Below are positions 12,515 to 16,818 of a DNA stretch of 64,000 nucleotides, one piece after another; position 1 is the stretch's first letter; every line of letters starts with the position of its first letter. The notes beneath the pieces were generated by a model that had not been told where the DNA came from, did no database searches, and saw only the letters and a list, made by a program, of their open reading frames with translations. The stretch is taken from NCBI GenBank assembly GCA_965219955.1, contig OZ244799.1, positions 4,192,001-4,256,000 on the forward strand. The letters are read 5' to 3'. The position numbers and the translations under genes are program-made. This DNA comes from a bacterium. Lineage in GTDB: Bacteria > UBA8248.

Positions 12515-13675
12515 GTGAGACGCGCAGAGACGGGCGCATACGAGACGACGACGTTCGGCGGCGAGGCCGTGCGCGCGTTCGTGCCCGCCAGCCTGCCGCC
12601 CAGGCCGCCGCTCGACCTGGCCGCCCTGAACGCGCCGCTCGAGCGGGCGTCGCTCTCGCTGGGCCGCCTCGACGCCCTGGCCGCGCTGCTGCCCGACCCC
12701 CACGTCTTCCTCTACACCTACGTGCGCAAGGAGGCCGTGCTCTCCTCCCAGATCGAGGGAACGCAGTCCTCGCTCTCCGACCTCCTGCTCTACGAGGTGG
12801 AGGGGGCGCCGGGCGCGCCGGTTGACGACGTGGTCGAGGTCTCGAACTACGTGGCGGCGCTCGAACACGGCCTGGCGCGGATGCGGGGGGATGGTTTCCC
12901 GCTCTCGACGCGCCTCATCTGCGAGATCCACGGCCGGCTGCTCGCGCGGGGCCGCGGCGCGGGCAAGAGCCCGGGCGAGTTCCGGCGCTCCCAGAACTGG
13001 ATCGGCGGGAGCAGGCCGGCCGCGGCGCACTTCGTGCCGCCTCCGCCCCACCGGGTCGGCGAGTGCATGTCGGACCTCGAGCGCTTCTGGCACCGGGAGG
13101 ACTTGAGGCTATCGGCCTTGCTCCGCGCGGGTCTCGCGCACGTTCAGTTCGAGACCATCCACCCGTTCCTGGACGGGAACGGGCGCGTCGGGCGGCTGCT
13201 CATCACGCTCCTGCTCTGGCGCGAGGGCGCGCTCCGCGAGCCGATGCTTTACCTGAGCCTTTTCTTCAAGCAGCGCCGGGCGGATTACTACGCGCTCCTG
13301 GACGAGGTGCGCGAGAGCGGCGACTGGGAGGCGTGGCTCCTCTTCTTCCTGGAGGGCGTGGCCGAGACTTCCGATGCGGCCGTGGCGACCGCGCACCGGG
13401 TGCTGGCGCTGTTCGATGCGGATCAGCTCCGCGCCGCGCAGACGGGCCGCGTGGCCGGCTCCGCGCTCCGCGTCTACCGTGCGCTCAAGGAGCGGCCCAT
13501 CGCCTCGCTCGCGCACGCCGCCGGGCACTCGGGCCTCTCGTTCCCCGCGGCGTCCAGCGGGATGCGCGCGCTCGAGCGCCTCGGAATCGTCCGCGAGCTC
13601 ACGGGCAAGAAGCGCAACCGCCTGTTCGGCTACGAGGCGTACCTCTCGATCCTGAACGAGGGCACGGAGGTGTAG
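12515..13675 (+). CDS. Fic family protein (Fic_N + Fic + C-terminal HTH)
   Basis: SSQIEGT inhibitory motif; HPFLDGNGRVGR catalytic motif. Confidence 0.93.
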   Translation: MRRAETGAYETTTFGGEAVRAFVPASLPPRPPLDLAALNAPLERASLSLGRLDALAALLPDPHVFLYTYVRKEAVLSSQIEGTQSSLSDLLLYEVEGAPGAPVDDVVEVSNYVAALEHGLARMRGDGFPLSTRLICEIHGRLLARGRGAGKSPGEFRRSQNWIGGSRPAAAHFVPPPPHRVGECMSDLERFWHREDLRLSALLRAGLAHVQFETIHPFLDGNGRVGRLLITLLLWREGALREPMLYLSLFFKQRRADYYALLDEVRESGDWEAWLLFFLEGVAETSDAAVATAHRVLALFDADQLRAAQTGRVAGSALRVYRALKERPIASLAHAAGHSGLSFPAASSGMRALERLGIVRELTGKKRNRLFGYEAYLSILNEGTEV

Positions 13676-13680
13676 GTGGT

Positions 13681-13711
13681 AGGGGGGGGGGCGAAAGCCC
13701 CCCCTTTTTTT
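13681..13711 (+). terminator. Rho-independent terminator after fic
   Basis: G-run/GCGAAAGC/C-run hairpin followed by T-tract. Confidence 0.75.
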
Positions 13712-13715
13712 ATGT

Positions 13716-13789
13716 GTAGGGGCCGCATACATGCGGCCCTTGTAGTGGGTGAAAAAACCAGGGTCGCATGTATGTCGGACATATATGTC
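13716..13789. repeat. GTAG-type REP doublet, left part of the IS target
   Basis: GTAGGGGCCGCATACATGCGGCCC..GTCGGACATATATGTC. It continues as GACCTAC after the IS (15165); a related intact copy lies near 15591. Confidence 0.7.
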
Positions 13790-13849
13790 CTATATGGACG
13801 CCCACGAGAATGCAAGCGGTTTTTGGGGAGGGTTCGGCGCAAAGCGGTT

Positions 13850-14062
13850 CGGCTCAGTCGTATATCCGGCCTCTTCGTTGCGGCGCTTTACTCTGGCCGC
13901 GGGCCCGTATGGAGATAGGTGGACCGGGTCCAAATCGACCTGGTGAGCTCGGTGGCTCTGGACATATATCTGGTTTTCCCGGTCCCGTCTCGATGACCGT
14001 TTGCCCTTACCCTTCCTCCGGCCTGCTCACATTCCTCCCGGCTCTATCCGTGCGCCCGCCGC
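13850..14062 (-). ncRNA. Predicted IS1111 bridge/seek RNA (exact ends unknown)
   Basis: Stem GGACCGGG(13921)/CCCGGTCC(13978) encloses TCGACCT and GACATATAT, which match the insertion flanks; a second loop has partial matches to the element ends. Confidence 0.78.
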
Positions 14063-15088
14063 TCAGGCGAGGGGCGCTGGCTCCCTGTAGACATCCTTGT
14101 TCCGCATCAGCGCCCACGCGATGCGCGCCATCCGGTTCGCCAGCGCCACCGCCACCACCTTCCTCGGCTTGCGCGCCAGCATCCGCGCCAGCCACGGACA
14201 CGGCGGCTTCCGGCGACGCCCCGCCCAGCGTATCTCCGACATCGCGCCCGATATCAACAGACGCCTCACGTCGCGCTGGCCCATCTTCGATATTCCCCCC
14301 AGGCGGGGCTTGCCCCCCGTGGAGTGCTGCCGGGGAACCAGACCCAGCCAGGCCGAGAAGTCGCGGCCCCGACGGAAGCGCTCCACCGGCGGCGCGAACG
14401 CCCGGATCGCCGACGCCGTAATCGGGCCGACACCCGGGATGCTCATCAGCCGCCGCGCCTCCTCGTCCGCGTATGCGCTCGCCCGGAGCCGTCCGGTCAA
14501 CTCCCGGACCTTCGCATCGAGGCCGTCAATCTGGGCGAGCAGAATCCCGCCCAACTCGCGGACCTCCTCGGGCAGGCCCGATTCCGCTCCCCGAACCGCC
14601 GCCGCCAGCCGTGTGAGGCCCACGGGCCCTTGCCGCTCGACGACCCCGAACTCCGCCAGGTGGCTGCGCAGCGCGTTGCGCGCCTGCGTGCGCTGACCCA
14701 CCAGCAAATCCCGCGTGCGGTACTCCATCCCACACCCCTGCTGCGCTTCGCTCTTCACCGCCACGAAGCGCATCGTCGCCCGCGTGGCCGCCTCGCATAT
14801 CGCCTCCGCATCCGCCGCGTCGTTCTTGTGGCGCTTCACGTAGGGCTTCACGTAGACCGGCGGCATGAGCCGAACCTCATGGCCGAGCTTGCCGACCTCG
14901 CGCCCCCAGTAGTGCGCGCTCGCGCACGCCTCCATCGCCACCACGCATCGAGGCTGCGACGACAGAAACTCCAGCACCTTCGCGCGCGTCAGCTTCTTGC
15001 GGAACGCCACCCGCCCGTCCGCACCCGCGCCGTGGAGTTGAAAACTGTGTTTCGCCAAGTCGATGCCGATCATGTAGACTCCTTCCAT
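14063..15088 (-). CDS. IS110-family recombinase (IS1111 group)
   Basis: GIDLAK, AMEAC, KNDAADA (DEDD), SIPGVGPITA, RQHSTGG catalytic Ser; intact ORF with AAGGAG RBS. Confidence 0.95.
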   Translation of the reverse strand: MEGVYMIGIDLAKHSFQLHGAGADGRVAFRKKLTRAKVLEFLSSQPRCVVAMEACASAHYWGREVGKLGHEVRLMPPVYVKPYVKRHKNDAADAEAICEAATRATMRFVAVKSEAQQGCGMEYRTRDLLVGQRTQARNALRSHLAEFGVVERQGPVGLTRLAAAVRGAESGLPEEVRELGGILLAQIDGLDAKVRELTGRLRASAYADEEARRLMSIPGVGPITASAIRAFAPPVERFRRGRDFSAWLGLVPRQHSTGGKPRLGGISKMGQRDVRRLLISGAMSEIRWAGRRRKPPCPWLARMLARKPRKVVAVALANRMARIAWALMRNKDVYREPAPLA

Positions 15089-15201
15089 GGTCGTCTCCTT
15101 CCGGGCGGTGTGTGACGTCGTCTCGCCACATTCTAATCCGCCGGAAGGAGGCGTCCACCCCATCGACCTACACTCCCTTCGGCAAGACGGATTCCCATTG
15201 C

Positions 15202-15770
15202 CCTCATCCCGAGTAGGCGCGCTCGCGCGCCGTATCGAGGGAGCGCCCTTCGATACGCCGCCTCCGGCGGCTACTCAGGGTGAGGTCGATACGGCGGCCG
15301 ATGAGGGAGCAAGATAAACTCCTCCCTTGAGGGGGAAATCCCATAAGGGCAACCCCCCCTACCCCCCCTTGTCAGGGGTCAAACGCGAGTGATGAACGAG
15401 CGTTTGCATGAGCCATTGACGAGAAACACATCGTCTTGCAAAACCTCCCTCTTCGGTCGGTTTTGACCCCTGTCAAGGGGGGGTAGGGGGGGTTGTTTTT
15501 CCTGGCGAGAGCCTGCGCCGCCGCCTTTTGGGATTATCTATCCCGTCATTCCGTTATATGGCGGAGACAGAAAAACCGGGAGGATACACGGTCAGACATA
15601 TATGTCTGACCCCTACGTAAAACGTGATGGGTTTTGTAGGGACAGGCCTCCGTGCCTGTCCTGACGAAGGACAACCACGAAGAGCAGGACAGGCACGGAG
15701 GCCTGTCCCTACGATGAACAGTTCGGTGATCGGGATCCCCTCCCTCCTCAAGGGGGCCTTTTCAAGAATC
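15202..15770. repeat. Repeat cluster with four or five REP families
   Basis: CTGAGTAG-type doublet 15202-15285; about 32-bp IR CCCCCCTACCCCCCCTTGTCAGGGGTCAAA 15352-15494; GTCAGACATATATGTCTGAC near 15591; GTAGGGACAGGC doublet 15637-15713. Confidence 0.8.
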
Positions 15771-15927: not shown

Positions 15928-16818
15928 CTAATACCGCTCGGGTACGAAAGTCTGCTCGCTCAGGGGAGGGCGCACGTAGGCCTTGGAGTCGCGGCGCGGG
16001 GGGAGTTCGACGGGCGAGGGCGTGAGGTCCTCGTAGGGGATGAGGGAGAGCAGGTGGCTGATGCAGTTGAGCCGCGCGCGGCGCTTGGAATCCGCGTCCA
16101 CCACGTACCAGGGGGCCTGCTTGATGTCGGTGTGGGCGAACATCTCGTCCTTCGCCCTGGAATACTCCACCCAGCGGGTGCGCGATTCGAGGTCCATCGG
16201 CGAGAGCTTCCAGCGCCTCGTCCTGTCCTCGATGCGCGCGTGAAAGCGGCGCTCCTGCTCCTCGTCGCTCACCGAGAACCAGTACTTGATGAGTATTATC
16301 CCTGAGCGCACGAGCATCCGCTCGAACGTGGGGCAGGAGTGCAGGAACTCGCGGTATTCCTCATCCGTGCAGAAGCCCATCACCCGCTCGACGCCCGCGC
16401 GGTTGTACCAGGAGCGGTCGAAGAGCGCCATCTCGCCCGCGGCGGGCAGGTGCGGCACGTAGCGCTGGAAATACCACTGCGTCTGCTCGCGCTCGGTGGG
16501 CGCCGCGAGCGCCACGACGCGGCACACCCTCGGGTTGAGCCTGAGCGTGATGCGCTTGATGACGCCTCCCTTGCCGGCCGCGTCGCGCCCCTCGAAGATG
16601 ACGACGACTTTCAAGCCCTGGTGCTTTATCCACTCCTGGAGCTTCACGAGTTCTTCCTGGAGCCGCACGAGTTCCGCCTCGTACACCCTTTTGGTCAGCT
16701 TCCGGCGCGGGGCTTTCCGGGCGTCTCCCGCCCTGGTGAAAGCGGGGGCGGTATCGCCCCCGGGCGCGACGCCCTCGCTGTCAGGTGTGGTCGTATCGGA
16801 TGCGCCTTCCGGGTCCAT
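15928..16818 (-). CDS. ppk2: Polyphosphate kinase 2
   Basis: FEGRDAAGKGG Walker A, WYFQRY, FDRSWYNRAGVERVMGFC, WKLSPMD. Confidence 0.95.
   Translation of the reverse strand: MDPEGASDTTTPDSEGVAPGGDTAPAFTRAGDARKAPRRKLTKRVYEAELVRLQEELVKLQEWIKHQGLKVVVIFEGRDAAGKGGVIKRITLRLNPRVCRVVALAAPTEREQTQWYFQRYVPHLPAAGEMALFDRSWYNRAGVERVMGFCTDEEYREFLHSCPTFERMLVRSGIILIKYWFSVSDEEQERRFHARIEDRTRRWKLSPMDLESRTRWVEYSRAKDEMFAHTDIKQAPWYVVDADSKRRARLNCISHLLSLIPYEDLTPSPVELPPRRDSKAYVRPPLSEQTFVPERY

Follow-up and report, generated by a model that had tools for sequence, protein, structure and literature searches.

A genomic copy of an IS1111-group element with predicted bridge RNA guides in a repeated palindrome of a UBA8248 bacterium

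The window analysed here, a stretch of 64,000 nucleotides (nt) from a bacterium of the lineage UBA8248 (contig OZ244799.1, positions 4,192,001 to 4,256,000), contains an insertion sequence (IS) on its minus strand, at 13791-15165, inside a repetitive extragenic palindrome (REP). We consider it very likely, with a probability of about 0.9, that this is one copy of an IS1111-group element, in which a DEDD recombinase of 341 amino acids (aa) would work together with a bridge (seek) RNA made from the 272-nt 3′ non-coding end, whose two loops would read the target and the donor. The anatomy of the element, its multi-copy and site-specific distribution, an empty site and the covariation of four guide strands with targets and element ends were observed in the genomes compared here. 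By analogy with published members of the family, the RNA would be the acting molecule, a circle would be the intermediate and strands would be exchanged at the core. In the proposed mechanism, the target-loop segment AUAUAUGUCC would pair with one strand of GGACATATAT and the segment AGGUCGAU with the other strand of AGGT-CG, both guides defining GTAGGT-CG-GACATATATGTCCGACCTAC, which corresponds to a GTAG-type REP palindrome. The donor loop, through AUAUACGA and CUCCAU, would recognise the two element ends as joined in the excised circle (...CCATATA-CG-ATGGGG...), and recombination at the shared CG dinucleotide would leave the inserted element flanked by CG on both sides.

The transposase (recombinase) gene, at 14063-15088 on the minus strand, encodes a protein with a DEDD RuvC-like domain at the N-terminus and a Transposase_20 domain at the C-terminus. 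For its start we took the ATG indicated by the alignment with the relative c8, an upstream in-frame ATG at 15163 falling in the element end. On the resulting 341-aa open reading frame (ORF), the Pfam profiles DEDD_Tnp_IS110 (PF01548) and Transposase_20 (PF02371) scored 52.7 and 83 bits, while the NCBIfam model NF033542, 'IS110 family RNA-guided transposase', reached 310.6 bits with a cut-off of 140. Among solved structures in the PDB, the only relatives found by sequence were the transposases of ISCro4 (E 2.4e-10) and IS621 (E 2.1e-9), the latter match being confined to the C-terminal domain. In the literature, IS1111 members are separated from IS110 by a long 3′ non-coding end, subterminal repeats and a GL-P----(S/T)G motif (PMC11187229, PMC11208160), given as GL-P----S(t)G for IS1111 transposases (PMC11187229). 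The sequence GLVPRQHSTG in the C-terminal domain fits this motif, and the non-coding part comprises 272 nt on the 3′ side of the gene (13791-14062) and 75 nt on the 5′ side (15089-15163). An 8-bp subterminal inverted repeat was detected by a repeat search between 13795-13802 (TGGACGCC on the plus strand) at the right end, where the alignment of relatives also places it, and 15150-15157 (GGCGTCCA on the plus strand) at the left end, where it is kept in relatives; outward of these repeats lie a 4-nt extension, TATA (13791-13794), and a 6-nt extension, CCCCAT (15158-15163). The profile matches, the long non-coding end and the inverted repeats bear out the IS1111 class proposed by an earlier sequence-only reading of the window. 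The element is best regarded as a member of a known RNA-guided kind, the IS1111 group of the IS110 family, rather than as a new system.

Genomic copies and the core dinucleotide

The genome, a single contig of 4.28 Mb, harbours eight copies of the element with 97-100% identity, in addition to the relative c8 at 79%. In the aligned junctions of six of these eight copies, one side reads ...GTC-CG|TATATGG... and the other ...CCCCAT-CG|ACC..., whereas in the window copy (c0) and in copy c3 the left-hand CG, in plus-strand notation, is without its G, that is, at the right-end junction. In the window copy, position 13790 is the remaining C of the target core and the next G is absent. The orthologous uninterrupted site of a sister species (L144) reads GTCGGACATATATGTC-CG-ACCTACACTCCCTTCGGCAAG, with GGACATATATGTC-CG-ACCTACACTCCC and ATATATGTC-CG-ACCTAC around the core; a similar empty site was found at L146, and at L142 and L143 the whole repeat cluster is absent from the orthologous locus. 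Likewise, the site occupied by copy c4 is empty in four relatives (L148-L151), three of them reading TGCGTGT-CG-ACCTCC and one being a variant. The empty sites of both copies show that insertion was exact at CG, and nothing beyond this dinucleotide was duplicated. The limits of the element, taken as the part common to the eight genomic copies with ends aligned across relatives, are 13791-15165 (1375 nt, of which 15164-15165 are one copy of the CG core) in place of the 13781-15170 suggested before. The REP half GTCGGACATATATGTCC lies on one side (13774-13790, plus strand), constituting the right target in element orientation, and ACCTACAC on the other (15166-15173, plus strand), constituting the left target.

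These junctions bear directly on the sequence-only reading, which had placed the core at TC, with an empty site ATATATG-TC-GACCT, and had taken the window copy as fully intact and mobile. In the window copy alone, TC is indeed the sole dinucleotide common to both junctions; moreover, when the 5′ target guide is set in the register of most relatives (core, 2 nt, GAG hairpin), its core position reads UC, and a relative in the sister genome G011 (L032) sits at CG-CATATAT, fitting that register. Nevertheless, the orthologous empty site reads GTC-CG-ACC, the proposed empty site (ATATATGTCGAC) occurs 0 times in the genome, where ATATATGTCCGAC occurs 7 times, and CG stands on both sides of six of the eight copies. 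In addition, the 3′ target guide reads AGGU-CG-AU and the donor guide ATATA-CG-A, with its equivalent in 59 of 65 elements. On this evidence a TC core appears highly improbable. The sequences point to CG as the core, the TC common to both window junctions being a by-product that appears because one base is missing. A perfect free target site is present near 450,380.

The missing base also affects how the mobility of the window copy is to be judged. This copy probably still supplies protein and RNA in trans, and its own excision is probably impaired, because one core base is missing at the right-end junction. We would give even odds to the stricter view that the copy is locked, so that CCATATA-G-GACAT in place of CCATATA-CG-GACAT would spoil the core and prevent excision while recombinase and RNA would still be provided to the other copies. 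The base is absent in c0 and c3 only, and a DNA contig of run X1 covers 13720-13820 without a difference, which makes a local assembly slip improbable, though X1 may be the source sample. IS621 is excised when its two junctions recombine at the core (PMC13626964), and the window copy retains an open recombinase ORF, with 22 base differences and 7 amino-acid changes relative to c1, and an RNA region identical to that of c1. Against a locked copy, the enzyme may tolerate a changed core, and the same junction is found in two copies at unrelated loci, so it may arise at insertion or be tolerated, and need not reflect later damage. In the relatives L045, L054 and L057, too, the cores at the two junctions disagree (CG vs CA), yet those families have several copies. 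The earlier description of the window copy as intact holds for its ORF and for its RNA region, which is the same as in other copies, and is doubtful for excision.

Collecting the flanks of the other copies confirmed a GTAG...CTAC palindromic repeat as the target. Seven of the eight copies, rather than being spread over unrelated sequences, occupy two related REP subtypes, and the eighth, c4, lies in a look-alike coding site, where it splits a 448-aa cobW-family GTPase gene. Copy c4 represents an off-target insertion into a sequence resembling the second REP type. The notion of the REP as a safe harbour accordingly needs qualifying, one of the eight copies interrupting a gene.

Further observations concern individual copies. 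At the orthologous locus in L145 (G017:C318), another family member with ends ATGGGATGGACGCC is inserted in the neighbouring palindrome GTAGGGGC-CG-CATATATGCGG; judging from their sites, the lineages of the family appear to target distinct REP subtypes within one genus. Copy c7 (G000:C1:4139890-4140040, outside the window) carries a tandem duplication of its last ~70 nt, bounded by ATATACG, a sequence that serves as right end plus core and as donor-guide DNA alike; such a duplication would result from slippage between these 7-nt repeats or from recombination at the donor mimic. The left flank of c3 (L004/L152; G000 ~693,760-694,010) is a ~250-bp repeat that ends in the REP and has 29 matches in the genome and many in the genus, which may constitute a larger composite repeat or a unit resembling a miniature inverted-repeat transposable element (MITE).

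Guide strands and the fold of the RNA region

Relatives of the element were gathered from the same genus (16 of 22 genomes) and from one other family (2 of 7 genomes), as well as from public metagenome-assembled genome (MAG) records labelled Alphaproteobacteria, Vicinamibacterales, Nitrospinota and Gemmatimonadetes. Of 590 candidate stretches in these records, 539 encode a relative, and 80 were retained. An end-motif filter (both ends with ≤2 mismatches, spacing 1330-1400 nt) was passed by 57 of 108 loci (L032-L140 without L050); the loci that failed, among them most Vicinamibacterales-labelled loci and cut contigs, are outside the counts. The covariation set comprised 56 loci (the 57 minus the false hit L055) and the nine own copies, amounting to 65 elements with 30 guide types.

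Four guide strands can be read on the minus strand of the window copy. The 5′ strand of the target guide, RNA AUAUAUGUCC (13960-13969), base-pairs with the right target GGACATATAT on its top strand; a repeat search recovered the flank ATATATGTCC at 13781-13790 as its exact reverse complement, a perfect inverted match of 10 nt, while the chance expectation for a given 10-mer in a 270-nt stretch is ~3e-4. The 3′ strand, RNA AGGUCGAU (13934-13941), is composed of the left target AGGT, the core CG and the first two left-end bases AT, and the same search detected ATCGACCT as an 8-nt direct match between 13934-13941 and 15162-15169, across the other junction. In the donor guide, the 5′ strand CUCCAU (13909-13914) pairs, one G-U included, with ATGGGG at the start of the left end, and the 3′ strand AUAUACGA (13858-13865) equals the right-end ATATA, the core CG and the first left-end base A, that is, the sequence of the circle junction. 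The motifs picked out by the sequence-only reading, namely GACATATAT (13961-13969), TCGACCT (13935-13941), TCGTATAT (13858-13865) and TATGGAG (13908-13914), the last two in the donor-binding loop, together with the stem and the inner hairpin described below, are all present at the positions it gave. The guide-flank matches exceed chance, and we take the covariation tests as the decisive ones.

Among the 30 guide types and 56 element/site combinations, the 3′ target strand matched 5.14 of the 7 positions left of the core in cognate pairs versus 2.14 in non-cognate pairs, and the uninterrupted run of the 5′ strand on the right target averaged 5.79 nt versus 1.94 nt. None of 5000 permutations reached the observed target-guide sum, a figure that overstates somewhat because related guide types are not independent. 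The donor 8-mer, formed by the last five right-end bases, the core and the first left-end base, occurs verbatim in 59 of the 65 elements, the other six having a mismatch at the last base only. This match spans eight end variants (ATATA, ATGTA, ATGCA, ATACA, ACATA, ATAGA and ACACA with CG, and ACAGA with TG), with 18 of 160 variant-by-guide pairs matching. Concerning the other donor strand, CUCCAU pairs perfectly with the ATGGAG ends of other lineages, and UUCCAU goes with ATGGAA and ATGGGA ends, so that CUCCAU/UUCCAU and ATGGAG/ATGGAA/ATGGGA appear in partly compensating combinations. Thus, the donor match described as imperfect involves one G-U in the CUCCAU/ATGGGG pairing, while the other donor guide is an exact 8-mer across ATATA-CG-A.

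The core itself covaries: where both junctions of a lineage read TG, the dinucleotide is UG in the 3′ target strand as well as in the donor strand, and CA in the 5′ target strand. The two bases past the core in the 3′ target strand (AU) equal the left-end start in all lineages and resemble the 'handshake' bases of IS621 (PMC13626964). Regarding the order of the guides, AUAUAUGUCC, which pairs with the top strand, lies 5′ of AGGUCGAU, which has the same sense as the top strand; this agrees with the order reported for IS1111 seekRNAs, where the top-strand match precedes the bottom-strand match (PMC11187229).

The conserved bridge/seek RNA region extends over 13812-14011 (minus strand), as defined by a consensus fold and pair counts, its ends as an RNA being predicted. 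The alignment contained 28 rows, corresponding to the window copy, c6, c8 and 25 of 29 distinct RNA regions; left out were L055 (a false end-motif hit), L076 and L091 (near-copies of L071) and L128 (internal duplication in the hairpin). The consensus fold has 32 pairs and consists of a closing stem, a small hairpin and two framed loops. The closing stem joins GUAAG(G) at 14005-14011 with (C)CUUGC at 13812-13817 and has no two-sided changes. The target-binding loop (13921-13985, minus strand) comprises an 8-bp stem, in which GGACCGGG (13921-13928) is paired with CCCGGTCC (13978-13985), an inner hairpin of GAGC (13945-13948) with GCTC (13955-13958), seen as GAG/CUC in the consensus, and two internal-loop strands between them; the donor loop is framed by GGCC/GGCC and a GCGGC/GCCGC hairpin. 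Pairing was found in 98.4% of 894 cells, compared with 24.8-40.2% when partners were slid. Five pairs changed on both sides, as against 1.6 +/- 0.9 in shuffles (0 of 500 shuffles as high); four of the five are compensatory changes in the target-loop stem, the remaining helices being near-invariant and giving little information. All guides lie unpaired in internal loops of this fold. The assignment of the two loops as target and donor guides, suggested previously, is thus supported by both the covariation in relatives and the conserved fold.

An alternative would be that the guide-flank matches act as DNA, or are REP leftovers carried in the element, with no RNA guide involved. The data presented here are sequences, the RNA-library contigs mentioned below are weak, and the guide DNA and the flank do form an inverted repeat able to pair as DNA. 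Even so, we find this alternative scarcely credible, given that the matched segments always lie at the same places of a conserved stem-loop scaffold whose stem shows compensatory changes, and that they change with the target in 30 guide types, whose targets are unrelated to REPs. Furthermore, in published members the RNA is co-purified with the enzyme, and the target moves when the RNA is reprogrammed (PMC11187229, PMC11208160).

Several features of the element fit the proposed RNA-guided IS1111 mechanism less well and have to be set against it. The 8-bp subterminal repeats are below the usual 11-13 bp (PMC11187229), at the short end of the 7-17 bp range (PMC11208160), and the terminal extensions have 6 and 4 nt plus CG instead of the 7 and 3 nt quoted for the group. 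The 5′ donor guide is short and needs a G-U, and an A-C mismatch persists in seven elements (L033, L052, L054, L057, L062, L066, L067), which combine ATGGGA ends with CUCCAU. Between lineages, the register of the 5′ target guide relative to the core varies by 0-2 nt, as does the distance of this guide to the hairpin, and it shifts also within the own copies; the same guide faces CG-GACACGCAGG in c5 and c6 and CG-ACACGCAGG in c4. It seems that the 3′ target strand sets the position of the core and that the 5′ strand tolerates a shift of one base. Folding the 3′ end and comparing it with RNA models, as the sequence-only reading had proposed, added little. The single-sequence fold of 13781-14065 on the minus strand (-104.1 kcal/mol, z = -1.47) was equalled by 18 of 200 shuffles and is therefore not informative alone, and an Rfam 15 scan of 13300-15600 with E up to 10 returned 7 unrelated matches below the gathering score, with no bridge-RNA family among them. 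A scan of the joined ends for a circle-junction promoter (Pjunc) found only the match to the resident left-end promoter and none of consensus grade. Lastly, contigs of three RNA libraries from two studies cover 13760-14100 and are 90-99% alike; as DNA carry-over is possible and contigs reveal neither depth nor absence over the gene, they do not prove transcription, and we take them as a weak hint, compatible with transcription of the non-coding end. The runs holding the sequence derive from sponge and marine metagenomes.

A junction promoter seen by eye, TTGCAT-17 nt-TACGAT, matched 7/12 positions and was discarded as being below the scan threshold. Near the right end, GCTTGCAT (13812-13819) hardly varies across the 28 aligned relatives; GUAAG, with which the RNA region opens on its 5′ side, is a possible pairing partner, and the sequence also looks like a weak -35 element, 17 nt ahead of TACGAT across the circle junction. 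Two diverged partial copies of the bridge-RNA region (74-75%) are found elsewhere in the genome, at G000:C1:1860727-1860986 and 3812420-3812614.

Guide alleles and nested insertions

Copies c1-c6 are identical across the element save for six positions, all between 13938 and 13982, in the target loop. Three of these changes form an adjacent block (AUA to GCG) that converts AUAUAUGUCC (allele A: c0, c1, c2 and c4) into AUGCGUGUCC (allele B: c3, c5, c6 and c7). The other three occur in c6 only, two of them in the 3′ target strand, where they improve the fit to REP type B, and one in the stem, where a G-C pair becomes G-U. Allele A fits REP type A, GTAGGT-CG-GACATATATGTCC (block fit: ACATATATGTCC), and allele B fits REP type B, GTAGGGG-CG-GACACGCAGGTCC (block fit: CCTGCGTGTCC), of which the genome has 13 sites, counted as GGACCTGCGTGTCC.

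Six of the eight copies lie in the REP type that fits their own allele, a 6:2 distribution indistinguishable from random pairing (Fisher two-sided ~0.49, n=8). Copy c3 has a B guide in an A site and c4 an A guide in a B-like site, two misfits out of eight that likewise count against the mechanism proposed. Action of the RNA in trans would explain this swap, while eight copies prove no preference; since the 6/8 fit is not significant, a cis-preference of the guides is not claimed.

The two alleles are also carried by the diverged backbones of c0 and c7 (three backbones in all) and by the sister genome G011. The guide alleles therefore predate these copies and have passed from one backbone to another. 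A very recent de novo retargeting was considered as well and is weakened by the presence of both alleles in G011 and on the diverged c0 and c7.

A more speculative possibility, which we consider unlikely, is that guide segments act as exchangeable cassettes whose aim is changing inside a single genome. Guide DNA and neighbouring flank constitute inverted repeats ~170 nt apart, and an off-target insertion would create an imperfect inverted repeat, c4 being a case of this type. Template switching in replication could 'correct' such an imperfect repeat, rewriting the guide to fit the new site; if true, this correction would be a built-in route to natural reprogramming.

In some relatives, the guide gene of another member is itself the insertion site. 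Whole members are found inside the bridge-RNA gene of another member in L042/L060 (G005:C139), L037/L059 (G018:C139) and L069, the site being the DNA for the 3′ strand of the donor loop, ...GAAAGGC-CG-GATACACGAATGCGCC. The target guides of L042 match this nested site (GUGUAUC-CG and AGGC-CG), so that the element appears to be aimed at the guide gene of a relative. Similarly, L070 and L088, from Alphaproteobacteria MAG records, sit in GGGCAAA-CG-GTCAATCGAGACGG, which belongs to the conserved 5′ portion of a bridge RNA like that of L082. The guides of both match this site (GCAAACG; GUCAA), and their own RNA gene is without the C of that CG, a change that would spare them from self-targeting.

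The locus and related systems

The element is located in a repeated palindrome between two genes, a Fic-family gene (12515-13675) followed by a terminator hairpin (13681-13708) and a PPK2 gene on the minus strand (15928-16818). A sigma-70-like promoter match, TGGACG-16 nt-TAGAAT, is present in the left end (15130-15157, minus strand) and agrees with the consensus at 9/12 positions, a consensus match only. More palindromic repeats surround the element, namely GTAGGGGCCGCATACATGCGGCCC at 13709-13740, a vacant REP of TCAGACATATATGTCTGA type at 15589-15612, with 2 mismatches vs the target, and G/C-run repeats, CCCCCCCTACCCCCCC...GGGGGGTAGGGGGGG, at 15340-15500.

Targeting of REPs by RNA-guided IS1111/IS110 elements has been published for ISPa11 (PMC11187229) and for IS621 and ISPpu10 (PMC11208160, 10.64898/2026.03.19.712850). 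Hence, the possible novelty suggested for the specificity amounts to no more than each member having a target of its own. The IS1111 element ISPa11 of Pseudomonas aeruginosa shares with the present one a REP target and a seekRNA from the non-coding region downstream of the transposase gene; this seekRNA co-purifies with the transposase and has two short matches to both target strands, the top-strand one first (PMC11187229). It differs in host lineage and REP sequence, and the evidence gathered here is only comparative. The IS110-group IS621 of Escherichia coli has in common with it a DEDD recombinase with a two-loop bridge RNA carrying target and donor guides (PMC11208160), a core dinucleotide at both boundaries, insertion into REPs and 'handshake' bases by the core (PMC11208160, PMC13626964). 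IS621, however, carries its RNA upstream of the gene, within the left end, and has a CT core and subterminal repeats of only 2-3 bp, whereas the present element has its RNA downstream, a CG core, 8-bp repeats and the reversed guide order. ISPpu10 of Pseudomonas putida is also a bridge-RNA element, present only in copies of one conserved intergenic palindromic repeat, and its recombinase acts in trans (10.64898/2026.03.19.712850); it is named in the Extended Data Fig. 10 legend of PMC11208160. In that element a stem-loop of the target is reported to add specificity (10.64898/2026.03.19.712850), while copy c4 of the element studied here lies in a coding site and not in a REP.

The case of ISEc11 and ISXne4 resembles the allelic differences described above, in that IS1111 relatives keep the RNA stems and differ in target-matching segments and in targets (PMC11187229). 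Their transposases are 72% identical (PMC11187229), whereas here the alleles differ between copies with the other 1369 positions identical. IS4321/IS5075 and the attC-targeting IS1111 members are, like the nested relatives, aimed at a repeated sequence of other mobile DNA; their targets are transposon inverted repeats or attC sites (PMC11187229), and the target of those relatives is the bridge-RNA gene of another IS. Within the literature covered on IS1111/IS110 guides, no description of aiming at the bridge-RNA gene of another IS was found. Neither the present element, in the literature on IS1111 bridge/seekRNA and REPs, nor guide alleles on identical backbones within one genome were found described, the supplements of PMC11187229 and PMC11208160, which may show close bridge RNAs, lying outside this scope.

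As the class of the element is known, the general picture of RNA-guided recombination remains unchanged. The value of the present case is that of a clean natural data set from uncultured marine and sponge-associated bacteria, in which all four guide strands are readable by covariation and a switch of the core from CG to TG is visible in step in the guides and at both junctions. Moreover, one genome combines a target-guide allelic series on an otherwise identical backbone, which we find modestly interesting, with an off-target hit in a gene. Such material bears on the natural re-aiming of these elements and on their true specificity, both of which matter to those who engineer bridge recombinases.

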